From a candidate division FCPU426 bacterium (lineage in GTDB: Bacteria > Oederibacteriota > Muellerivitia > Muellerivitales > Muellerivitaceae), in the NCBI GenBank assembly GCA_963738405.1, contig CAVTWJ010000018.1, positions 64,001 through 128,000 on the forward strand: 64,000 nucleotides of DNA, in the 5' to 3' direction. The stretch's first letter is position 1; every line of letters starts with the position of its first letter. The notes under the pieces were generated by a model, which made no database searches, was not told where the DNA came from, and was given only the letters and a program-made list of their open reading frames with translations. The position numbers and the translations under genes are program-made. Shown here piece by piece: positions 22,601 through 35,316 of the stretch.

Positions 22601-23028
22601 ATCTACTTTTGGAAAAGGCCTGGGATTGGAAACCAGCCCAAATCCCTCAGGCCGCGGAATATTACGGTGAAAAGATGGGTCTTTCACCTGAACAAAGGGC
22701 GGAGGCGGCCCAGTGGGTCGAACAGACCCTTTTGAACCCTCTCATCCAAAGGGCTAAAAAATCCGAAAGGGCCTTCCGGGAATTGCCCCTTACGGGAAAA
22801 TATGAAGATGATTTTTTGAACGCGGTGCTCGACCTGGTCTTTTTGGAAGAAGGGAAATGGGTCATTGTGGATTACAAAACCGACCGGGACCCGAACAAGT
22901 TAGCCGAAAAATACGGGAAGCAATTAAAACATTACGCCAAGCTTTTGGAGCAGACCACCCAAATACCCGTCAAAGAAGCCCATCTCCTCTTTATCCGGGA
23001 GAATCGGGCCCAAGCTGTCCCCCTTTAA
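19648..23028 (+). CDS. addA: AddA/RexA-like UvrD-family helicase-nuclease
   Basis: AGAGTGKT, DEFQD, VGDPKQSIYRFR, ENFRT, TIHKAKGLEF, LLYVAATRA, C-terminal IVDYKTD..QLKHY. Confidence 0.92.
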   Translation: MISDQSIRTLVTHDHETLFAVDAGAGTGKTTQLVARLIALLLEKKVPLSRIAAITFTEKAAAELAQRLRFKLEEALPKYPEQKALILKALEDMERAPISTIHSFCAGLLKDYPVEAGVDPQFALMDEVQSGAFETQTWEHWLKKNLSQPVEPLFQFLRLGGTFEHVDELKQFLKRNRTLLKTPEKQALPSVEPFRKEWKEFLIWSKQAAKDCKDHKDKLYEALETFWAESQVQESSKPEEADFNLALLDIPKVKRTGNQKAWDKAVLDEIRLRFEGLAEDHTSAFAPFREAVLLNLIHWIGGYLTEWETQKAKSGFLDFDDLLLKTRDLLRDHLDSREEIKKRFDTLFVDEFQDTDPLQVEIVFFLCELQGRHEKDWKKASLEPGKLFLVGDPKQSIYRFRRADVAIYEATKERILANGGKVEVLTENFRTVGGLVEWVNERFLPQFEGSGITYRALNASREKGKTEGTLPILWGLKVPVPEGSEDTKAFYRQQEAEWVAAYLKDQILQGGWTVADPKTHERRAVRAGDIALLFRDLSNDNEEYWEEALRKRDLPYQIIGGKRFYNRPEIVALSTLLTCLSSPADEAACVAVLRGPLFGFSDEELFLHRADKGSFLFQEDAKEKMGKAFKCLRDWFDATRTLGVSETLSYLYEHTNLLAITAGQPHGEQRVANLMKVLDQARNLETTQHFTYRAFTQWLTTQQEEGTLEGEAPGPDSSEDRTGVFYDTGTDKTSASAGGLGADRITLMTIHKAKGLEFPIVFVSAWSSDPKDSGSLVDRKAMVGAFKVGRADLGLKTTNYDSVKEDEELQQLAENTRLLYVAATRARDCLLLPHFQMPLECKFQNENLFAGPLLKALEEKDSPVRSAPRPPAEAEDLTILASIKTPVRWAEPDSIKESLGDPAVWSVKLNVDPKDPALKAEKEKLVSENQKRTGLIERMMGKRTFQSVTSVLAVDEDKKGTEERIWEGPEPSSPWGGKELGSFTHLLLEKAWDWKPAQIPQAAEYYGEKMGLSPEQRAEAAQWVEQTLLNPLIQRAKKSERAFRELPLTGKYEDDFLNAVLDLVFLEEGKWVIVDYKTDRDPNKLAEKYGKQLKHYAKLLEQTTQIPVKEAHLLFIRENRAQAVPL
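21805..21880 (-). mobile_element. 69-bp in-frame insertion element, copy A (span includes flanking direct repeats)
   Basis: GACCGCA (21805) / GATCGCA (21874) 69 nt apart; hairpin ACCGGTGTC-TTTTAT-GACACCGGT; reverse complement aligns ungapped to copy B. Confidence 0.8.
22232..22310 (+). mobile_element. 69-bp in-frame insertion element, copy B
   Basis: CGCCAGTGCG direct repeat at 22232 and 22301 (69 nt apart); hairpin ACTGGCGTC-AATAAA-GACGCCAGT. Confidence 0.8.
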
Positions 23029-25127
23029 CTTCCTAACCCCAACTGTCCCATTTCATATTTCAACCAGGCGTTTCCCGGGGAAAGCTTCTGGGCCTTTTGG
23101 AAAATCTTTTTAGCTTCCGCTTTTTCGCCTTCTACGGCCAAGAGCTTGCCGTATTTTTCACATAGAGTCGCATCCTGGTAGCTTTTCCCAAAAGATTGAT
23201 GGAATGTTTCCGAGAAATTATTCCAATTCGCCCAGTTATCCCCCGGGAAAAAAGTATTTTCCCAGGAAAAATTAAAAGCCAGTTTTTCGAAATAACAAGA
23301 TTGAAGAAAGGGGTCGGAAGGGATGGAGGGATAGGCCTGTAACATTTTTTCAAGGACCGCTTGGTGGGGTTTGCCGGTGGGGATATCCACCGATTCCAAA
23401 TTGATCTCCTGCTGAAACGTGTAATAACTTTTCCATCGCTCCAGGAAGGTCCTATTTACCGGAGTCACCGGTAAAATCCCGAGCGCGTGCCGGCTCAAGA
23501 CCCCGGGTTGAGGGGTCCCGCCGTTGATCCAACGGCAGTCAGGGAGAGCCTGGGATAAAAAGGGTAGATAGTGGGTTTCCGTAAAGACCGCCGCCCATTT
23601 CACGTCTTGTCCCAGACGCTGGTTCCAGGCCGCGTTGAAAGGGTAGGAACAATAGGCCAGCGAGTAATTTTGGGGGCTGGGAACCATATCCGAAAAGATC
23701 CAACCGGGTCCCTCCGCCCTCGCCAGGTTGTCCAGACTCCTATATCCGTCCCGGTACTCGCTGAAATCGACCTGGGCGGGATTCGGAAGAAATAACCGAT
23801 TGAGGTCCCAAACCGCCGAAGAACCCAGCACCACGACCAGCAGGAGGGGACGTAATCGGCCTGGCAGGGATAAGACCAAGGTTTCTATTCCCAAGGCCAA
23901 AAAGATCAGCAGAAGGGGTAACGCTAGGAGCATCCGGTGGGCTTCCAGGTCCCTGGATAAAAGGCCGGGCAGGAGGAAGATGGGAAAGGCAACCAAAAGA
24001 ATTTTGGATAGTAATTTAAAGCGCCCTCGGACCATTTCAACGAATCCCAAAAGGAAAGCCGATCCCAATAAGGCGTTTAATAGCCCCCCTTGGGGCGCCA
24101 ATTCCATCCCCGAGGTCCCGCCCCAAAAAATCGCCTGAAGATAACTGAAAGCGACCCGCGCCTGACCCCATAGGGTAAAAGAAGGATCATTCCAAGCCGC
24201 TACTTCATGCAAATGCCCGCCATAGCCCGTCCCAACCGCCGTGAGAAGAAAAGGAACCATTCCCCCCAAAAGAAAAATGAAAAAAAGTCCTCCGGCGGCC
24301 CACTCCGTTTTTTTCCAAAACCATCCGCCTGCCACCCCCAACCCAAATAGAGTTAATACGGGCCAAGCCATAAAGGTATAGGGCCCCAAGCCCAAGGCCA
24401 GCCCCAAGGCGCAGGCCCAAATTTTTCGGGAGGCGGGATTGGGGGACAAAGTCAAACGGCCGAACAGGTAAAGTACCCCCCATTCCCAAAAGGGAAGCAA
24501 AACCCCCGGTTCATCGCACCGGGAAAGAAGAAGGTCCCATAGGTTGAAAGCCGTTATAACCGCGAGGATTCCCGCGAGGGGCCTTGAAAAATAAAGGCGC
24601 GCGGCGGCATAGCTTAAAACCACGGTCAAAAACGAGACCAGGGCCGAGGGAATTTGGATTCCCAGAAGATTCGAACCCGTCAACCTTGCCGCGAAATAGA
24701 AAAGGTAACTGAGCGTGCTGGGAACCTGGCTTAGGATCACAAAAGGTTTCCATTGCCAATGGTCCATCCACTGGATGACCGACAGGGCCAAGAGGGAAGA
24801 GTCCCCTCCCGGCCAGCGGCTTAAGGAACCGATACCCCAAAATCTCACGAGGGCCGCGAACGTCAGGAGGAAAAACCAAACCCAGACTGGGAAGGAAGCG
24901 TTTTCGCCGGAACCCTTGGATCGAAGAAATGAACGATCCCTGGCCGGGGAAGAGGGGGATAAATAAATCAAAAGCAAGGGCAAGGCTAATCCTAAAAGAA
25001 GAATCCGGATTTTGGAGGGTGGGGAAAGCGGAGTCTGGGATAAAAGCGAAAGGCTGGCGGCCAGTATGATAAAACAAAGCCAAGCGGGAAATGGAATCGA
25101 CCGGGCTGTTATTTTGTTTTTTTTCAC
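23025..25127 (-). CDS. Polytopic GT-C-like (ArnT/PMT-type) membrane protein with C-terminal TPR
   Basis: Many hydrophobic segments, R..sl...WP.gD loop, C-terminal TPR-like helices; paralog of 43138-45174. Confidence 0.65.
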   Translation of the reverse strand: MKKNKITARSIPFPAWLCFIILAASLSLLSQTPLSPPSKIRILLLGLALPLLLIYLSPSSPARDRSFLRSKGSGENASFPVWVWFFLLTFAALVRFWGIGSLSRWPGGDSSLLALSVIQWMDHWQWKPFVILSQVPSTLSYLFYFAARLTGSNLLGIQIPSALVSFLTVVLSYAAARLYFSRPLAGILAVITAFNLWDLLLSRCDEPGVLLPFWEWGVLYLFGRLTLSPNPASRKIWACALGLALGLGPYTFMAWPVLTLFGLGVAGGWFWKKTEWAAGGLFFIFLLGGMVPFLLTAVGTGYGGHLHEVAAWNDPSFTLWGQARVAFSYLQAIFWGGTSGMELAPQGGLLNALLGSAFLLGFVEMVRGRFKLLSKILLVAFPIFLLPGLLSRDLEAHRMLLALPLLLIFLALGIETLVLSLPGRLRPLLLVVVLGSSAVWDLNRLFLPNPAQVDFSEYRDGYRSLDNLARAEGPGWIFSDMVPSPQNYSLAYCSYPFNAAWNQRLGQDVKWAAVFTETHYLPFLSQALPDCRWINGGTPQPGVLSRHALGILPVTPVNRTFLERWKSYYTFQQEINLESVDIPTGKPHQAVLEKMLQAYPSIPSDPFLQSCYFEKLAFNFSWENTFFPGDNWANWNNFSETFHQSFGKSYQDATLCEKYGKLLAVEGEKAEAKKIFQKAQKLSPGNAWLKYEMGQLGLGS

Positions 25128-26612: not shown

Positions 26613-27950
26613 TTAAGGCTTTGGCTGGAGGAAGGATCGTACTTTCTCGGCGGCTCGGTGGCCTGAGAAGCAAGCGCCCTCAATGGTGGCGGGAAGGCCG
26701 GTGGCGGTGAAATCCCCGGCCAAAAACACGTTTTCAAAAACCGTTTCGCAGGTGGGGCGACACGAGACGTTCTCCGGGGTTAATTCGACTGTCGCGGCCA
26801 TTTCCTTCACTACCTTGGAATGAAGTCTTTGGGCGCCTTGAGCCAGGGGAAAATGGCGCTGTAATTCTTCCACGGCCGTCACCAAAAGTTCCTTATCGTT
26901 TTTCACGGCCAAATCCATGTCCGCGCTGGCGACCAGGCTTAAATATTGTCCCGGGCCTGCGTAGCCCCAATTGGCGTTGCGGTTGAAGACCCACTCGAAA
27001 TGGGCGCCGGGGAGCCCGGCCCAATGGCCTTTCATCACAGGCCGGTCGAGCAAGAGATTTACGGAAAGAATCGGAGAGCGGCCCATTTGTTCTGCCGAAA
27101 CCGGGGAGGGAAGATCGGACGTGGTCCAGAGGGCCTCCAGGGACCGGGGGGGGAGGGCCAAGACGAGGGCGTCGCCGGAGAAAATTTTGCCCGAGGCTGT
27201 TTCTACCTCGAAAGGTCCGCTGACCAGCCGGAGGTGGCGGGCCCCATCCCCCAAATGGATCATTCCCCCTTTTTCTTTCAAGTAGCTTTCAACTTTGGGA
27301 AAGGCCAATTCGCTTAAGGGTTTGGCGGGCAGGGCGATAGCGCTCTGGGCGCGGGTTCCAAAAAAGGCCCTGTGCAGGGCCTCCCCGAATTCCAAAAGGG
27401 AGGATCGTTCGGGCTGCAGGTTCATGACGGCCCGGCAGAGGGGATCCCAGAATCTTTCACGGGAAATCGGCCCCTGACGGGTATGGACCAAAAACTGGCC
27501 CACCGTTTGGAGGCCCTTAGCAATTGAAAAGGGGCGCCGGGCGAAGGGCTGGAGCGCCCGGGCCAGGGAAAGTTTTTCCCCCATGGGAAAGGCCTTGGTT
27601 TTCAGCAAGCCCACCGCCAGATGGAAGGGAGCCGGAAGATTGGCGCAGGAAAAGGAGGCGGGTACGCCGCCGGGGCTCATCCAGGTGATTTCCAGCGGGT
27701 TGATCCAATGGAAGGAGTTTTCGAATTCCAAGCGCTTGAAAAGCGCCCAGGTGTCTTTGTAACAGCCCAGGAACAGATGGGGACCGTTGTCGCAGGGAGC
27801 TGGAAAGGAATCTCCCGGCGCGATGGTGTAGACCCGGCCGCCGAGGGAAGAGCGGGTCTCCAAAAGTTCCACCCCGATTCCCTGCTCGGCCAAGGCGGTG
27901 GCGGCGGCCACCCCGGAGTAACCTCCTCCCACCACAATAACCCGGCTCAT
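26613..27950 (-). CDS. hpnE: Hydroxysqualene dehydroxylase
   Basis: VVGGGYSG FAD motif, DNGPHLFLGCY, LAGDFTATGLPATIEGA; follows hpnCD. Confidence 0.88.
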   Translation of the reverse strand: MSRVIVVGGGYSGVAAATALAEQGIGVELLETRSSLGGRVYTIAPGDSFPAPCDNGPHLFLGCYKDTWALFKRLEFENSFHWINPLEITWMSPGGVPASFSCANLPAPFHLAVGLLKTKAFPMGEKLSLARALQPFARRPFSIAKGLQTVGQFLVHTRQGPISRERFWDPLCRAVMNLQPERSSLLEFGEALHRAFFGTRAQSAIALPAKPLSELAFPKVESYLKEKGGMIHLGDGARHLRLVSGPFEVETASGKIFSGDALVLALPPRSLEALWTTSDLPSPVSAEQMGRSPILSVNLLLDRPVMKGHWAGLPGAHFEWVFNRNANWGYAGPGQYLSLVASADMDLAVKNDKELLVTAVEELQRHFPLAQGAQRLHSKVVKEMAATVELTPENVSCRPTCETVFENVFLAGDFTATGLPATIEGACFSGHRAAEKVRSFLQPKP

Positions 27951-27969
27951 GCGTTTTCTCCCCCGGGCC

Positions 27970-28806
27970 TCAAGCGAATACCTTCCCCAGCGAACAGCGG
28001 CCCAGGGCGCCCACCACCGAAAGAACCTTATCCGCGCGGGAAAGGGATCTTTTTCCCTCGAGTATGGTGAAGGGTTGGTCGTAAAGCCGCTGGTAGAGCT
28101 TCACATAAACTGCCGCGATGGCCTCGGCGGTGGGAAGCTCAGCCCTTTGTTTAGTGGAAAGGGCGGCGCGGGATTTCAACAGGAAACCCAGGGCCCTGTC
28201 CAATTGGAACCGTACGAAGGCCGGCCAATGGGAATCGCCCTTTTGAATGTTTTCCGGAACCAGATGAAATTGACGAAAGTCGGAAAGGGGGAAATAAAGC
28301 CTCTTGAATCCTAGGTCTTCCTTAAAATCGCGGGTCACGTTGACGAGCTGGAGAAAAACACCGAGGTTTTCGGCATAGACCCGGTGGGCTTCATCCTTAA
28401 ACCCGAATATTTCCATGCTAGCCAAACCAGGCCCTCCCGCCACTTGCAGGGCGTAAGAATGGAGTTCCTTGAAATTTTTAAATCGCAGGGGTTTTAAATC
28501 CCTGGCGATGCCGTTCAAGATGCGTTCCAGAGGCTCGGACGAAAGGTTGAAATCCCGGATCACTTCCTGAAATGAGGTAAACAGGGGATCTTTCGATTTT
28601 TGCAAAAAAGCTTTTTTGAGTTCCGCCCTGAACCGGGCGAGCCGGGATTTCTTTTGGGCGGAGGTGCCTTCCCCGTCGGCGATCTCGTCCGCGTTCCAGC
28701 AAAAACGGTAAAGGGACTCCATGGCTGCCCTTTTTTGGGGGGATAGAAGAAGGAGGGGGAAATAAAAACTCGATTTTTTTTCCAGGGAATCTTTTTGGGG
28801 ATTCAC
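27970..28806 (-). CDS. hpnD: Presqualene diphosphate synthase
   Basis: SSFYF, ADEIAD, QLVNVTRDFKED, RLYFP. Confidence 0.82.
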   Translation of the reverse strand: MNPQKDSLEKKSSFYFPLLLLSPQKRAAMESLYRFCWNADEIADGEGTSAQKKSRLARFRAELKKAFLQKSKDPLFTSFQEVIRDFNLSSEPLERILNGIARDLKPLRFKNFKELHSYALQVAGGPGLASMEIFGFKDEAHRVYAENLGVFLQLVNVTRDFKEDLGFKRLYFPLSDFRQFHLVPENIQKGDSHWPAFVRFQLDRALGFLLKSRAALSTKQRAELPTAEAIAAVYVKLYQRLYDQPFTILEGKRSLSRADKVLSVVGALGRCSLGKVFA

Positions 28807-28842
28807 GCGGCTTCCTTCAAGGGATATGTGATTGACTTTTTC

Positions 28843-29739
28843 CTAGGGCCGGACGAAACCGGCCAGGGATCGGAGGGCCAGGAGAGCCTTGTCCAAGGCG
28901 TTCCAGGAGGGCCTTTCCTGAAGCACATTGTAGTCCAGGGCCCGAATTTTCGAGAGGATTCCCTGGCCTCCCAGATAGGTGGCGCGAAGCTCCATCAGGA
29001 ACCTGCCCCGGACGGCCTCCAGTAAGGGGAAACCCCGCCGGAAATAGTTATCCGTGAATCGGACCGATTCCCTCACCAAGGCGCGAACCTGTGGGGAGTC
29101 CCTTAAAGCCAAGAGGTTGGAGGGTTTGACCCCGGCTTTTTTAAGTTCCGCCAGCGGGTAATAGATCCTTCCCCTTTTCAAGTCGATGGCCGAATCCTGC
29201 CAGAAATTAATGAGCTGAAGACCCGAGCAAATAAAGTCCGACCAAAGGTGAAGTTTTTTTTCCCGGTAGCCGGAAATGTATAGCACCATCCTTCCCACGG
29301 GGTTGGCGCTGTGGCGGCAATAATAGAGAAGGGAATTCCAAGTGGAATAGCGGTGGATCTTAAGGTCCATGCGGTAGGCTCTCAATAGGTCCAAAGGCAG
29401 GGACGTTGGTATCTGAAAGGTTCGAAGGGTATGGGCGAAGGCTTTAAGAACCGCTGGAGAATCTTTCCCCTGGAGGGCTTTTCCCAAACCCCTTTCCCAG
29501 GCGTCGATTTCTTTCAACCTTCGGCCCTCGTATCTTTCCTCATCGGCGAAATCATCTGCGGTACGGGCAAAGGCATAGAGGGCGGCCACGTGGGGCCGGG
29601 ATGCTTTGGGAAGAAGCAGGGAAGCGACCGGAAAATTCTCATAACGCGCCGAGGCTTGGTTTTCACAGGCCCGGTAGGCTTCTTGCAAATGTACAGGAAT
29701 GGGATAATTCACACCCCAAGGGTAAAGGGGTAGGGGCAA
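28843..29739 (-). CDS. hpnC: Hydroxysqualene synthase (start may be GTG 29712)
   Basis: YENFPVAS, ADDFADE, YCRHSANPVGR, LQLINFWQD. Confidence 0.9.
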   Translation of the reverse strand: MPLPLYPWGVNYPIPVHLQEAYRACENQASARYENFPVASLLLPKASRPHVAALYAFARTADDFADEERYEGRRLKEIDAWERGLGKALQGKDSPAVLKAFAHTLRTFQIPTSLPLDLLRAYRMDLKIHRYSTWNSLLYYCRHSANPVGRMVLYISGYREKKLHLWSDFICSGLQLINFWQDSAIDLKRGRIYYPLAELKKAGVKPSNLLALRDSPQVRALVRESVRFTDNYFRRGFPLLEAVRGRFLMELRATYLGGQGILSKIRALDYNVLQERPSWNALDKALLALRSLAGFVRP

Positions 29740-29889
29740 AACGGAAACCCTAATTTTAGGACTTTTTCTTTACAAGGATTCATTCGGGATAGATTTAGCC
29801 CAAATTCAACTTTTTATTTGAGATGGTTTGGAGAAAGACGTCGTTTTGTTTGATAAAATCCAGTCCGCATCCCTGGACCAAAATCTGAC

Positions 29890-30999
29890 ATGGAAAAAAT
29901 GAACTTTTCTAAACCATTCGTATTAGGAGCCGTGACTTCCTTTTTGGGACTCGTTTTATTAAGCGAGATGCTTCTTCGCCTGACGGTTCCAACGGGTTTC
30001 TGGTACCGCCATTTCGACTTATCCGCCGATTTCACAAGTTTGGCCGAGGTTCAAGACCGGTTGCGTTACGGGGCCCAGGGAAACCCTGTCGTTTTTGTAA
30101 TGGGTGACAGCGTATTGGGGGCCAGCGCCCTCATGGAACACCGCCTCCCAGGAGCCCGAACCCTGACTTTGGGGCGTTCCCTGGGCCGTGAGCTGGAACC
30201 GGATGGCATTCATGCCCTGACCCTTGGCGCCGATGGAATTCTTTTGCCAGATCTTTTGGCCCTTACCAGCGAGTTTCTTCCCCAATATGAAAAGATCTCA
30301 AATGGGCTTAAACCGCAAAAAATACTTTTGCTGCTGAATTTTCGTATGTTTTCTCAGGAATTCGCGTCCGGTCCCAAAGCCCTTTCCAGGGAATTTTTAA
30401 AGGAAAATTTGCCTCTTTCCCTGGCGGCGGCGCTTGGGACCGATCCTAAGAAGACGGATGAAAACAGGCTCAGCGATAAACTTTTTGAATTCCTTTGCCG
30501 GCACTTCTTTCTTTTCCGCGAATCCCAAATGGCGAAGACCCTTTGGTATTACCCAAACCAGAAAGATTTTTTCCAGCGCCAGTTGGAGAAAGTCATGGGG
30601 CCGTCGAAAGAAGAGGAGGATTTGGTGGAAGCGGGCTTGAAACTCAAGATCGCGACCTATTACCAGGCCTACCACTGGCCGGAAGACGGGATGCCCTTTC
30701 TAAGTCTGGCGCTTTTATTACAAAGGTTGAAGGAATCCAATATCCCGGTCGATGTGATTTTAACTCCCCAAAACCCGGCCTTTTTAGGGGAATACTTGGA
30801 CCGACCCAGTTTTGAATTCAACCGGAGGAATCTTCAGCTTTTCATGAAGGCCCATGGATTCAAGGGATTGGAGTACAGGGACTGGTCCAACCGATATGAA
30901 TCCCGCCTATTTCTGGATCATTGTCATTTGACCCCTGAGGGAAATCAGGCCTATGCCAGGGATTTGGCAGATCTGCTTGCGCGAAAGGAAAAAAGCTAA
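29890..30999 (+). CDS. Membrane-anchored SGNH-fold protein (DltD/AlgJ/PatB-like acyl acceptor-transferase)
   Basis: N-terminal TM helix, GDS motif (VMGDSV), C-terminal DHCH (DxxH); upstream of an MBOAT gene. Confidence 0.7.
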   Translation: MEKMNFSKPFVLGAVTSFLGLVLLSEMLLRLTVPTGFWYRHFDLSADFTSLAEVQDRLRYGAQGNPVVFVMGDSVLGASALMEHRLPGARTLTLGRSLGRELEPDGIHALTLGADGILLPDLLALTSEFLPQYEKISNGLKPQKILLLLNFRMFSQEFASGPKALSREFLKENLPLSLAAALGTDPKKTDENRLSDKLFEFLCRHFFLFRESQMAKTLWYYPNQKDFFQRQLEKVMGPSKEEEDLVEAGLKLKIATYYQAYHWPEDGMPFLSLALLLQRLKESNIPVDVILTPQNPAFLGEYLDRPSFEFNRRNLQLFMKAHGFKGLEYRDWSNRYESRLFLDHCHLTPEGNQAYARDLADLLARKEKS

Positions 31000-31118
31000 T
31001 GAACCATTCATTTCTGAAGGGCCTGGGTGTGGGAATGGTTTTGTTTTTGCTTTTCCTGGCCATCCTTCTTTTTTCCGGGGATCTTTCTGCTTCCAAGTTT
31101 ATTTATGTTGATTTTTAA
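30999..31118 (+). CDS. 39-aa DltX-like membrane micro-peptide
   Basis: MNHSFLKGLGVGMVLFLLFLAILLFSGDLSASKFIYVDF*; TAATG overlap with the upstream stop; one TM helix plus C-terminal FIYxxF. Confidence 0.8.
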   Translation: MNHSFLKGLGVGMVLFLLFLAILLFSGDLSASKFIYVDF

Positions 31119-31135
31119 AAACCGGGGAGCGCTTT

Positions 31136-32338
31136 TTGATATTTAATACGAGCTGGTTTCTTCTTTTTTTTCTCCTTTTTTATCCATTGCTTTGGCTGAT
31201 GCCGACTCCCCGGTTCCGACTGGTTTATACGCTTGTCTGCAGCGCCATTTTTCATTACCACTTCGCCGGACCTGCCGGAATAAAACCCATCATTGCCATG
31301 GCGGTTTTAACTTTTTTTTTCGCCCTCGGGATTGCGGCCAAGCGGCAGAAACCGGGAATGGGAAAGGGCCTTTATTTAGGAGCGGTTCTTATACCGGTTT
31401 TAGGGCTGTTATTTTTCAAGTATCAATACCTGCTGGTTACTTCCCTGGGAAACATGATGGGAGGAGACATGGGGAGTTGGTTTCAAACCCACGCCTATCA
31501 GCCGGCCCTGCCCCTGGCCATTTCTTTTTTCACCTTTGAATTTGTCCATTACCTGACGGACGTCTACCACGGCAGCGAACCGGTGAGAAATCCCGTTAAG
31601 TTCGGTATTTTCTGCATTTTTTTCCCTTCCATCGTTTCGGGCCCCATCAAACGCTACCAGCCTTTTCTGGCCCAGCTTCAGGAAGGTTTGAAAAGGCCCG
31701 AGGTGGAAAGGGCCTTGCTGGGATTGTTCCAGGTATTATTAGGCTTCTTCAAAAAACTGGTCATTGCGGATAACGCGACGATGGTCATCCATCTTCTTGA
31801 AAAAAGAACTGATCTGACCTTTGGACCCACCTGCCTTCTTTTGGCGCTTCTTTCTATCCGTATACTTTTCGACTTTTCCGGCTATAGCGACATCGCCATC
31901 GGCTTAGGCAAATTGATAGGCTTGGATCTGCCAATCAACTTTAATTTTCCTTACATTTCAAGAAATATCACGGAATTCTGGAGACGCTGGCACATATCCC
32001 TTAGCAGCTGGATTCGAGATTACATTTACATTTCCCTTGGTGGCAACCGTCACGGCTTGTTTAGAAAATTTTTGAACCTGATGGCGACCATGTTCGTGTG
32101 CGGATTGTGGCATGGAGCCAGCTGGCATTTCGGAATCTGGGGCCTCTATCATGGTTTGGGCTTGGTGCTCCACGGCATTTTTGAGAAAACCCGGGCCGGG
32201 CGCTGGTGGATTAACTTTCCTTTCAGTCGTTGGCTGGATATCGCGTTCACAAACCTCTTTGTCGCCTATGGGTGGCTTTTGTTTTTCTACCCGATGGATC
32301 AGGTGGAAAAATTCACGAGATGTCTTTTGAGTTTTTGA
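31136..32338 (+). CDS. MBOAT family O-acyltransferase (AlgI/DltB/PatA-like)
   Basis: LPLAISFFTF, SGPI, DFSGYSDIAIG, EFWRRWHISLS, GLWHG. Confidence 0.92.
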   Translation: MIFNTSWFLLFFLLFYPLLWLMPTPRFRLVYTLVCSAIFHYHFAGPAGIKPIIAMAVLTFFFALGIAAKRQKPGMGKGLYLGAVLIPVLGLLFFKYQYLLVTSLGNMMGGDMGSWFQTHAYQPALPLAISFFTFEFVHYLTDVYHGSEPVRNPVKFGIFCIFFPSIVSGPIKRYQPFLAQLQEGLKRPEVERALLGLFQVLLGFFKKLVIADNATMVIHLLEKRTDLTFGPTCLLLALLSIRILFDFSGYSDIAIGLGKLIGLDLPINFNFPYISRNITEFWRRWHISLSSWIRDYIYISLGGNRHGLFRKFLNLMATMFVCGLWHGASWHFGIWGLYHGLGLVLHGIFEKTRAGRWWINFPFSRWLDIAFTNLFVAYGWLLFFYPMDQVEKFTRCLLSF

Positions 32339-32398
32339 TGGGGTGGGCGTATCTTGATTAAGGGTTTTGTTCGTTTGAATGCATCATTGGGAGGAAAC

Positions 32399-32881
32399 AT
32401 GAAAATTGGGTTTATCTTTTTATTTCTAACGGTTGCCGCGGTGGTTTTGGCGCAGGACGCCACTCCAACACCTTTTGCGACAATTCCGACGGGACAATGG
32501 AAAACTTCATCCGTTCCCTGGGATGACTGGTTCCCCAAAAATGCGCTCGTGACGGATAAAGGGGATTACGTTCATTTCTTTTGGAATGCCGAGGACGCTA
32601 AGGAAAATTTCGCCGGCAAGGACCGCAAAGATCGGCTCGCTGATTCCGCGCTTGAATTGGCTGCGAAACTCCAACCCGCCGGTGCCAAGGCCGATCTCGC
32701 CAAGGTGGATATTGTTTTTGTATTGGAAAGGGATTCCTACGGCCAGCCTAAATGGGACAGTCTTCAAAGGGTGGCCCATTTTGAGTTTTCGCGGGCGAAA
32801 GCCTTAAAGGTGTTGAATGGAAAGGCCGCCTGGACCGCTGCCGCTATGAAAAAAGTTTTTACTGTTGCCCAGTACTTTTGA
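32399..32881 (+). CDS. Exported hypothetical protein
   Basis: Signal peptide MKIGF..VLA-Q; RBS GGAGG. Confidence 0.7.
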   Translation: MKIGFIFLFLTVAAVVLAQDATPTPFATIPTGQWKTSSVPWDDWFPKNALVTDKGDYVHFFWNAEDAKENFAGKDRKDRLADSALELAAKLQPAGAKADLAKVDIVFVLERDSYGQPKWDSLQRVAHFEFSRAKALKVLNGKAAWTAAAMKKVFTVAQYF

Positions 32882-33007
32882 TCCCTCTTTCATGATTCTC
32901 AGAGGCTAGGGTTGTAAGGCTGGTGTTGGTTGAAAAGGCCATTTTTTCGCTATAAACTACCAGCCCTCTCTCAGATCATGCCATTAGGTAAATGGTCGAT
33001 GGACCTT

Positions 33008-33084
33008 GGACATTTAGCTCAGCTGGTTAGAGCGTCGCGTTCACATCGCGAAGGTCACTGGTTCGAGTCCAGTAATGTCCACCA
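33008..33084 (+). tRNA. tRNA-Val (anticodon CAC)
   Basis: Acceptor GGACATT/AATGTCC, D arm GCTC..GAGC, anticodon arm TCGCG-TTCACAT-CGCGA, TTCGA T-loop, encoded CCA. Confidence 0.95.
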
Positions 33085-33228: not shown

Positions 33229-35316
33229 TTGGGGAATTTTCTTAAAAATTCTTCCTGGCCGGGAAGGTTTTACAAAAGAAGCTTGAAGGGGAAGGCGGTT
33301 AAATGGCGCCCGATCCTTTTTTTCCTCATGGGACTTGGGGTATCCCTTCCCCAGAGTTCTTGGGCCGTTCGCCCCATGTACCATTCCATCGCCCTGGTGG
33401 CTGGCAGCGGTTCCCAGGGGTTCCTCGACGGATCTTTCACCTCGGCGCTTTTTAATAATCCTCTTGGATTGGCCATCAATAAAGATGGAACCCTGCTTTT
33501 TGTGGCCGATACGGGAAACAATCGCATCCGCGTTGTCCATCTTGACCAATCAAATAGGGTTTCAACCCTCACGGGCCAGGATTCCCCGGGGAGCCAGAAC
33601 GGTCCTTTGACAGTAGCCAATTTCAACCAACCCAGGGGTGTACTTTGCATCCCGGGGGAACGGCTCGTCGTCAATGACTTTGGCAACGGCTTACTGCGTC
33701 TTATAGACCTGAAAACCGGTTGGGTCTCCAATCTTGCTGGAGGTCCCACAGCCAATTTATCGGAAGGTCCCGCGTCCCAGGTATCTATGGGTGGAATCCG
33801 AGACATGGCCTATTTGCCGGAAGCCGACTCGCTTTTCTTAACCCAACCGGGGGAAAAATCGCTCAAAAGGCTGGATTTGAAAACCGGGGAAGTGACTTTT
33901 GTCCTGCGGGAAAACGCGGATATTCCGGCACCCATTTCGATTTGTGGGGTCGGAGGAAAACTTTACATTGCCGATTCGGATCGAATCTTCAGCATGAATT
34001 GGAAGGCCGGCTTGGACCCTAAAATCGCCTTGATCGCCACCCTCTCCTCAAATATACAGGCCCTGGCGGAAAACGGGGACCGGCTTTACGCGCTCAATTT
34101 AAACAGCGTGACACCGTTGGTGAGAGTTCTTCCCCAGCTGGAACCGGTGACTTTTACCACAACTTCCGGCGATGTGATGCCTGATCCGGGAAAAAACTTG
34201 CCCACCTTCTCGACCCAACAACCCCCTTGTTTCGTCTCTGATCCCACGGACGAAAGCAAATTTTTCATCATGAATCCGTCTCTCAACATCATCACATCCT
34301 TCAGGGATCTGTTTGGTCGCGAACCTGACTGGTACGCATGGAGGAATTCGAATGGTTTGAATGAAGACGAGTATCCAGCGCACAAGCCTCCCCGGACTTT
34401 CCGCATTCTCTTCTGTGGTGATTCCCGGTCCTGCGGGGTCGTCAATTACCCTTTCAAGACGACCTGGAATATCCAATCCTGGAAAAACGTGACCGGGGAC
34501 GTAAATGGGGCCCCTCCGCGCCAGGTCAGCATCGCCAAAAGGATGGAAGTCGAGCTGAATACACTCGCGGCCCTGGACGATTTACCTTTTAACTTTGAAG
34601 TCTTAAGTTTATTCCACAATGCCAACGATCCCCCCCTTCTCGTATGGCCGGCTTACGAAATCCCCGATGCGGTTAAAAAGAATGACATCGATTTAGTCAT
34701 GATTTTCTGGCCTCCCCCCGAAATTATGCCCGATCTCCCCCCTGTCATTTCTTATTACCAACGCCCTATTAATTCAGAGGGGATTCCCGAGAAATGTATC
34801 GATCCCGAGTATCTCTTGAAGCCTCTCCAGGAAAGAATTCCCGAGGGTGCGCCAAGGCAATTCTATGAAATGTGCAAAGCCCGTCATTTCGTCAGGGAGA
34901 GCGAGAGTTCTTATTTTTTCGATTTGAAAGTATACAAGGATCCGGCTTTTCGCGATCTCCTCATACAGCTGTACGGCAAACCCTTCGAAGTCCTAAAGAA
35001 AAAACTTTCCATTTTGAAAACCTCCGGGGGCCAACCCGTCCGGTTGCTTTTTTGTTCCGCCCATACGAGCGTATTTGACAAACCGGTGGAAGACCCGGTC
35101 ATGTGGAAGGAAATAACCAAAAATCTGGATATCTCCTTCCTGAATTTAAACGATGAAGTGTCGGCTTTAACACCTTCCTTTTTTCCCTTGGCTGAAGTCG
35201 GAGGGAATGACCATTTGGATCCGGACGGCCACCTTTTCTTCAGCTGGCTTCTAGTCCATGACCTCATTCGGGATGGATATTTGCCATGGGGCAAGACGCC
35301 TCCATCCAACCCCTGA
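33229..35316 (+). CDS. NHL-repeat beta-propeller fused to an SGNH-like domain
   Basis: FNNPLGLA..VADTGNNRIR, FNQPRGV repeats; RILFCGDS and NDHLDPDGH in the C-terminal half. Confidence 0.7.
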   Translation: MGNFLKNSSWPGRFYKRSLKGKAVKWRPILFFLMGLGVSLPQSSWAVRPMYHSIALVAGSGSQGFLDGSFTSALFNNPLGLAINKDGTLLFVADTGNNRIRVVHLDQSNRVSTLTGQDSPGSQNGPLTVANFNQPRGVLCIPGERLVVNDFGNGLLRLIDLKTGWVSNLAGGPTANLSEGPASQVSMGGIRDMAYLPEADSLFLTQPGEKSLKRLDLKTGEVTFVLRENADIPAPISICGVGGKLYIADSDRIFSMNWKAGLDPKIALIATLSSNIQALAENGDRLYALNLNSVTPLVRVLPQLEPVTFTTTSGDVMPDPGKNLPTFSTQQPPCFVSDPTDESKFFIMNPSLNIITSFRDLFGREPDWYAWRNSNGLNEDEYPAHKPPRTFRILFCGDSRSCGVVNYPFKTTWNIQSWKNVTGDVNGAPPRQVSIAKRMEVELNTLAALDDLPFNFEVLSLFHNANDPPLLVWPAYEIPDAVKKNDIDLVMIFWPPPEIMPDLPPVISYYQRPINSEGIPEKCIDPEYLLKPLQERIPEGAPRQFYEMCKARHFVRESESSYFFDLKVYKDPAFRDLLIQLYGKPFEVLKKKLSILKTSGGQPVRLLFCSAHTSVFDKPVEDPVMWKEITKNLDISFLNLNDEVSALTPSFFPLAEVGGNDHLDPDGHLFFSWLLVHDLIRDGYLPWGKTPPSNP

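Follow-up and report, generated by a model that had tools for sequence, protein, structure and literature searches.

In a 64,000-nucleotide stretch of DNA from a candidate division FCPU426 bacterium (contig CAVTWJ010000018.1, positions 64,001 to 128,000; the whole stretch is referred to here as the window), three consecutive genes, which we call the module, encode a membrane-anchored SGNH-fold protein, a 39-residue membrane peptide and an O-acyltransferase of the membrane-bound type (MBOAT), with a catalytic MBOAT histidine, an FXYXXF shuttle and an SGNH serine all encoded together (Table 1). The original prediction for this DNA had read the arrangement as a split relay of MBOAT, micro-peptide and SGNH protein, and the sequence facts behind it are all confirmed: the SGNH and peptide genes are coupled through TAATG, in which the stop codon TAA (30997-30999) overlaps the ATG (30999-31001), the peptide has one helix and ends FIYVDF, and the MBOAT, which starts with TTG and has a GGGGAG at 31124-31129, has the C-terminus FTRCLLSF. 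Its description of the peptide as unannotated stands in so far as the peptide has no name, but the gene had not gone uncalled, as the exact 39-residue sequence sits in a public predicted-protein collection, where all seven of the peptides that were looked up are present, without a name or as 'hypothetical protein'. Scans for promoters and terminators gave no more than chance would (3 vs 4.6 and 12 vs 11.3, respectively), and a search for RNA records that contain positions 29700-33000 listed none.

Table 1. Coordinates of the module and of the features that follow it, with the basis of each assignment.
Feature	Position	Strand	Basis
Membrane-anchored SGNH-fold protein, DltD-like, 369 aa	29890..30999	+	AlphaFold2/Foldseek fold, invariant motifs
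39-aa membrane peptide with one helix and the C-terminus FIYVDF; Tyr36 is the candidate acyl shuttle	30999..31118	+	Conservation, pN/pS, complex model
Tail-less MBOAT acyltransferase, 400 aa	31136..32338	+	PF03062, DltB-aligned His
160-aa protein with N-terminal hydrophobic segment, probably exported, candidate accessory subunit	32399..32881	+	Linkage
tRNA-Val(CAC), between the module and the propeller-SGNH gene, outside the mechanism	33008..33084	+	ARAGORN
695-aa NHL-repeat propeller with C-terminal SGNH-like domain (propeller-SGNH), candidate terminal transferase or esterase	33229..35316	+	PF01436, profile match

Conservation and linkage of the free peptide

Of all 43,553 open reading frames (ORFs) in the genome with at least 20 aa, just 3 have F.Y..F at their C-terminus, and the peptide ORF lies 17 bp upstream of the single PF03062 match found in this 90.7% complete genome, which together argue that it is not a chance frame. 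The peptide has a single strongly hydrophobic 19-residue segment (residues 8-26, mean Kyte-Doolittle 2.61), and all 27 sequences compared share F34, I35, Y36, D38 and F39 in the tail. Across 28 loci, pN/pS (non-synonymous and synonymous change) fell from 0.21/0.76 over the final 33 codons to 0.063/0.81 over the final 13 and 0.009/0.87 over the final six; the codon for Tyr36 changes freely between TAT (17) and TAC (11) while the residue is invariant, an own ATG start is present at 28 of 28 loci, and the other five frames contain stops in 11 to 28 of the 28 sequences. By these sequence measures, the peptide is shown to be a selected coding sequence, with strong purifying selection concentrated on its tail. 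That tail fits the acyl shuttle FXYXXF as defined in the available part of PMC12148441, and four annotated DltX peptides end FIYNEF. Against the Pfam DltX family (PF12459), the window's peptide gave no match at E 1; nine of the 27 orthologous peptides did match, all of them under the 25-bit gathering cut-off (best 23.2 bits, E 4.9e-5), and no DltX chain was found when the peptide profile was searched against the PDB. Three of the peptides (L145:7372-7563, L023:1226-1432 and L025:1306-1500) carry a proline-rich N-terminal extension of 23-29 residues (63-68 aa in all), with helix and tail unchanged. At two loci (L172:7508-9956, from genome G047, and L010:4001-5202) the MBOAT frame is interrupted, as is the SGNH frame in G047, and the peptide is intact; the interruptions are either assembly errors or recent decay.

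Among 99 genomes of the phylum, 26 encode an orthologue of the MBOAT (E 1.9e-120 or better, the next class starting at 2.5e-64), and strong matches to the peptide profile (E 2e-17 or better) occur in exactly these 26; the remaining 73 have neither, two weak peptide matches covering the hydrophobic part only. A species-genome scan gave 16 loci; 11 of these have an orthologous MBOAT (56-82% identity), and at each of the 11 the peptide gene lies between those for SGNH and MBOAT. Five genomes have a rearranged order of propeller-SGNH, MBOAT, 160-aa gene, SGNH and peptide, where the peptide trails the SGNH gene, two genes downstream of the MBOAT. The link between peptide and MBOAT is strict and outlasts rearrangement of gene order. 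The module also occurs in some Thermoanaerobaculia (L009, L010, L012 and L158; 2 of the 121 genomes sampled), whose MBOATs nest among the copies of the window's phylum (100/99 support), and this patchy distribution fits lateral transfer. Conservation of the small ORF, on which the original prediction had been made to depend, was found throughout: wherever an orthologous MBOAT was examined the peptide lies next to it, in all 26 genomes of the phylum and at four of four loci in the Thermoanaerobaculia.

A distant split system was seen in an Ignavibacteriaceae genome (L013:3947-6160), where a 373-aa tail-less MBOAT with 33-35% identity to that of the window is followed by an SGNH-like gene (assigned by motif) and a 51-aa peptide ending FFYADF, with no ligase or carrier seen beside it; when 121 genomes of its class were searched for this second, L013-type tail-less system at E 1e-65, one had it. 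Elsewhere, a contig end (G000:C11:87000-91902, covering L051-L054) differs from the remainder of its genome in holding AMP-binding matches broken by stops, along with duplicated ORF fragments, and is possibly mis-assembled or foreign.

The MBOAT and its SGNH partner

The MBOAT matches PF03062 (E 4.5e-25) and scores 188.8 bits against the DltB model TIGR04091, below the cut-off of 375. In an alignment to 6bug_C, its His286 and His326 align with DltB His289 and His336, named as active residues in the available text of PMC11035591, and the equivalents of both are invariant in all 81 rows of the tree alignment described below. The protein ends about 15 residues past the last shared helix, without two extra C-terminal helices bearing FXYXXF. 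Its 120 best relatives, of median length 400, are also without a tail, and no full-length protein among them has the motif at its C-terminus, the single regular-expression match being a 314-aa fragment that ends ...YHLF. The two arrangements are complementary: at 72 of 80 metagenome loci the MBOAT itself ends in the motif (69 in strict form, 3 as a variant), whereas MBOATs of the window's clade have no tail, and the 26 genomes of the phylum that encode them all encode the peptide. The other eight metagenome loci comprise three tail-less relatives whose loci are too short to reveal a peptide, three cut by contig ends and two that are apparently broken. Tail-less MBOATs outside DltB form a sizeable group, since 38 of 149 new representatives at 50% identity are not motif-ended (some of these may be fragments) and 111 are. 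One representative of 826 aa (P0126) has a tail-less MBOAT fused to a C-terminal SGNH-like region without an FxYxxF end, and would need a shuttle in trans.

MBOAT trees were built from 81 hand-picked rows, unrooted and with the tail columns removed, in which 25 tail-less representatives are known without genomic context; a more careful tree used 43 rows. Reference DltB sequences were taken from plasmid records, a search of genome G101's phylum having given 0 of 151. The window's MBOAT falls within a supported tail-less group (SH-aLRT, an approximate likelihood ratio test, 99 in the quick tree; 100/99 in the careful tree) and outside the DltB branch, which six DltB sequences form on their own with support of 100; it is therefore not a freshly clipped AlgI. 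The quick trees place the tail-less group next to the fused-tail MBOATs (SH-aLRT 92 and 97). A claim that it is closer to AlgI/PatA than to DltB was withdrawn, as a constrained tree joining it to DltB had a log-likelihood 43.5 higher (p 0.907 in the approximately unbiased, AU, test) and the careful tree did not uphold the claim at its deep nodes. Fused and tail-less forms are separated by one change in the 81-row quick trees (SH-aLRT 95-96), by two in the 43-row quick tree and, for the fused tails, by one in the careful tree (43/89 support, 44% of bootstrap trees); with one to two changes and weak support in the careful tree, the placement of all fused tails on one branch is not established. 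A speculative and rather doubtful possibility is that the tail-less MBOATs accompanied by free peptides form an old and broad lineage, the PatA/AlgI tail having arisen from a single fusion.

The SGNH protein has an N-terminal helix at about residues 11-29 and a predicted triad of Ser74 (in GDS), Asp343 and His346 (in DHCH), and G72, D73, S74, D343, H344, C345 and H346 are invariant in 27 of 27 orthologues. By sequence its kinship to DltD is weakly supported: the window's copy has no Pfam or NCBIfam match, four of the 27 orthologues match DltD (PF04914) weakly (best E 0.0036), hhalign to one DltD gave a probability of 10.6, and the SGNH and propeller-SGNH profiles found nothing significant among PDB sequences. 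Its AlphaFold2 model (pLDDT 89.9) retrieved DltD chains at Foldseek ranks 1-10 without exception (E 1.6e-6 to 1.6e-5, TM-score about 0.42-0.47) and is closer to DltD than to PatB (E about 1e-6 vs 1e-3); judged by this predicted fold, the protein is DltD-like.

In an ESMFold2 model of the three chains, run with our own alignments, the peptide scored 0.88 against MBOAT plus SGNH, compared with 0.56 for the best of three controls (MBOAT replaced, SGNH kept) and 0.00 for unrelated peptides; among solved complexes 116 of 157 reach the score mark, as do 2 of 215 mismatched pairs, a calibration that is only rough for three chains and our own alignments, and likeness to DltB and DltD, which were solved separately, may raise the score. 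Runs agreed in at least 91% of contacts, with partner pLDDT of at least 74. The modelled helix lies between MBOAT residues 198-213 on one side and the SGNH anchor (7-25) and SGNH residues 191-224 on the other, and the confident peptide contacts are all in helix and linker (residues 2-32). Co-folding had been proposed as a check that the tyrosine reaches the MBOAT histidine: the model supports binding of the peptide to both partners, but the tyrosine is not confidently placed at that histidine.

Two further proteins and the genomic neighbourhood

The split relay put forward originally is supported, but as a three-part system it was incomplete, as a 160-aa protein and fusions of an NHL propeller to an SGNH domain travel along with it. 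A profile of the 160-aa protein, built from 17 of the 28 genomes that it matches, found these 28 among the 99 of the phylum, namely all 26 module genomes, one contig-edge match and one copy beside a fused-tail MBOAT. The alignment of 17 sequences has an invariant R-D-x-Y-G-x-P-x-W-D motif, which includes Tyr114. The protein has no Pfam match and its model (pLDDT 84.2) no Foldseek match at E 0.001, the best VIA result (Z 5.4, rmsd 3.7, 79 aligned) is no clear match and Atlas matches of 0.83-0.85 are all unnamed; a new fold is not thereby implied. One speculative and rather doubtful idea is a five-part machine for envelope acylation, in which this protein, downstream of the membrane relay proposed below, would be a second, soluble tyrosine shuttle (with Tyr114) or adaptor and would carry acyl groups through the periplasm to several propeller-SGNH transferases, each serving a different surface glycan.

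The propeller-SGNH protein matches PF01436 (E 1.3e-7) and has Ser399 and His662 as candidate catalytic residues. In its C-terminal domain, which matches the anchored SGNH protein by profile (probability 93.2, E 2.9e-7), G, S and H are invariant in 16 of 16 sequences and no Asp is invariant. Its gene adjoins the module in many, not all, relatives, and the window's genome has three further paralogues, on contigs C2, C19 (in pieces) and C20. At six loci of relatives (L171-L174, L177 and L178) there is a second MBOAT of about 530 aa with a fused tail; at four of the six it has both a propeller-SGNH gene and another 160-aa gene in its vicinity, so neither partner is confined to the split form. A 630-aa protein that neighbours the fused-tail loci has no Pfam match at 1e-5.

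On the minus strand of the window, positions 26613-29739 hold two squalene/phytoene-synthase genes and a flavin amine-oxidase-family gene, divergent from the module, which we take to be HpnCDE-like; this divergent arrangement recurs in several genomes of the window's family and not in more distant ones. Further off on the same strand (23025-25127) is a gene for a 700-aa membrane protein with weak PMT_2 and TPR matches, below cut-off. Large membrane proteins resembling it flank the module in relatives, and proteins of this type could build the acceptor glycan.

The proposed relay, its alternatives and known systems

The host genome has LpxC and Omp85 above cut-off and, judged by gene content, belongs to a diderm, outer-membrane bacterium. 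The absence of dltA- or dltC-like genes from the window, pointed out in the original prediction, extends for DltA to the whole genome and the phylum, with TIGR01734 above cut-off in 0 of 99 genomes (the control was above cut-off in 2 of 14). No DltC-type carrier is encoded with the MBOAT; the two PP-binding matches of the genome, both acyl carrier proteins (ACPs), are on other contigs, in clusters of the fatty-acid-synthesis type. A link of the module to the second of these clusters was rejected, as its marker was found in just 7 of the 26 genomes with the module, and six genomes that do not have the module carry it too. FkbH had no match in the genome, but the control gave none either. With no dedicated ligase or carrier, and by analogy to PatA as described in the available part of PMC12148441, acyl-CoA becomes the default donor, and is most likely, with acetyl probably the group carried. 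The acceptor is most likely a surface glycan, since in four relatives (G030, G031, G022 and G232) the module stands among sugar-nucleotide, glycosyltransferase or flippase genes; no polymer synthase was found to be conserved beside the module. One of these relatives also has an open frame of 10,266 codons in which adenylation-like matches are numerous (G022:C4:227930-262994), probably a large nonribosomal peptide synthetase.

We consider it likely, with a probability of roughly 80%, that the module is a relay from MBOAT to peptide Tyr36 to SGNH Ser74, with probably acyl-CoA as donor and probably a surface glycan as acceptor, both ends of the path being inferred. In such a relay, set in the inner membrane and operating in the style of DltB-DltX-DltD, the MBOAT would use His326 to take an acyl group from a cytoplasmic thioester and esterify Tyr36 of the peptide, whose helix would be held between the MBOAT and the SGNH anchor helix. 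The periplasmic tail of the peptide would then hand the acyl group to Ser74, which would move it on to the envelope acceptor; the glycan would possibly be reached via the propeller-SGNH proteins, with the 160-aa protein as an accessory. The acyl-tyrosine chemistry, the topology and the roles of the last two proteins are thus putative, while the split reading as such is supported by the linkage, the purifying selection and the DltD-like fold.

Several points weigh against this relay or temper it. Peptide residues 33-39, Tyr36 included, are not placed in the complex model with an expected error below 8 A, and PMC11035591, in its available text, offers the alternative that the helices of DltX and DltD have a regulatory function. 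Because 25 of the 26 positive genomes went into the peptide profile, the presence of the peptide in them is partly circular and the absence from the other 73 is the informative half; related genomes are also not independent. Three tail-less metagenome relatives (L055-L057, 45-60% identity) showed no peptide, their loci stopping at the MBOAT or within it, and the usual neighbours of the module in the window's family are squalene-synthesis-type genes rather than glycan genes.

The same relay might instead be fed by an ACP loaded elsewhere, whether a fatty-acid ACP or an unlinked ligase/ACP pair, with a longer acyl or aminoacyl cargo and perhaps a lipid or lipoprotein as acceptor. The split layout and DltD-like fold are features of Dlt, which uses a carrier, the genome does encode two PP-binding proteins, and the AU test could not reject grouping the clade with DltB (p 0.907); yet both ACPs sit in fatty-acid-synthesis-type clusters, the marker of the second shows the poor association with the module given above, DltA is above cut-off in none of the 99 genomes, and the MBOAT core has 25-27% identity to six DltB against 26-40% (median 35.5) to 35 fused-tail MBOATs, which together make this source of acyl groups unlikely. 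That the peptide is only a structural or regulatory bridge, its tail docking in the MBOAT funnel without an acyl group, would suit a model whose confident contacts stop at residue 32 and the regulatory helices discussed in PMC11035591, but we hold it to be very unlikely, given that the available text of PMC12148441 reports acetyl-tyrosine on the same motif in PatA, by labelling and mass spectrometry, and donation from an acetyl-tyrosine hexapeptide to PatB, and that Tyr36 is invariant despite free synonymous change in its codon. A chance frame, or a decayed piece of a once-fused MBOAT tail, has parallels at L015 and L120, where a fused MBOAT is broken and its tail stands in another frame, but is effectively refuted by the position of the peptide, which is upstream of its MBOAT in the window and elsewhere two genes downstream of it, by its own start codon at every locus, by a tail pN/pS of about 0.01 and by the stop-ridden other frames.

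The relay favoured here resembles the core of the Dlt system for D-alanylation of teichoic acid in Bacillota (dltXABCD) in its tail-less MBOAT with two active-site histidines, separate one-helix FxYxxF peptide and anchored SGNH protein of DltD fold. Unlike that system, its operon has no DltA or DltC and its phylum none above cut-off, its host has LpxC and Omp85, its MBOAT (188.8 of 375 bits) and peptides (best 23.2 of 25) fall below the DltB and DltX cut-offs, and its two extra linked proteins have no Dlt counterpart; the peptide works like DltX, but the module is not a member of the Dlt pathway. With PatA/PatB, which O-acetylates peptidoglycan, as described in the available part of PMC12148441, it shares an MBOAT and SGNH pair in a Gram-negative envelope, the absence of a carrier gene and the hexapeptide motif, and the acyl-CoA donor there is a precedent for the one proposed here. 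The motif is carried on two extra C-terminal helices in PatA, whereas in the module it has a gene of its own. AlgF is a small periplasmic accessory protein, and AlgX carries a sugar-binding domain. The AlgI/AlgJ/AlgF/AlgX and WssH/I/F/G sets, for acetylation of alginate and cellulose respectively and named in the portion available of bioRxiv 10.1101/2024.09.17.613324, also combine an MBOAT, an anchored SGNH protein, a small exported accessory and a second SGNH protein, but their MBOATs have a fused tail, the 160-aa protein here matches no Pfam family and the second SGNH protein accompanying the module is fused to an NHL propeller. We regard the likeness in parts as analogy and not homology.

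MBOAT/SGNH pathways other than Dlt are presented, in the available part of Anderson 2025 (PMC12148441), as having no DltX-like microprotein and no carrier. We found no paper describing a free shuttle peptide outside Dlt, although the primary DltX paper (Schultz, Snow and Walker 2023) may list split systems in its survey. A microprotein without a carrier at this diderm locus indicates that 'free peptide' and 'D-alanyl carrier' are separable, and wherever a short MBOAT is annotated as AlgI it is worth looking for an unnamed partner of 36-70 aa. As chemistry the relay would be nothing new, and its organism is uncultured; the host most likely decorates a surface sugar polymer by a relay of three parts, of a kind described until now for Gram-positive D-alanylation alone, and the system offers a test of a shuttle acting in trans with an acyl-CoA donor, together with two uncharacterised partner families to assign.

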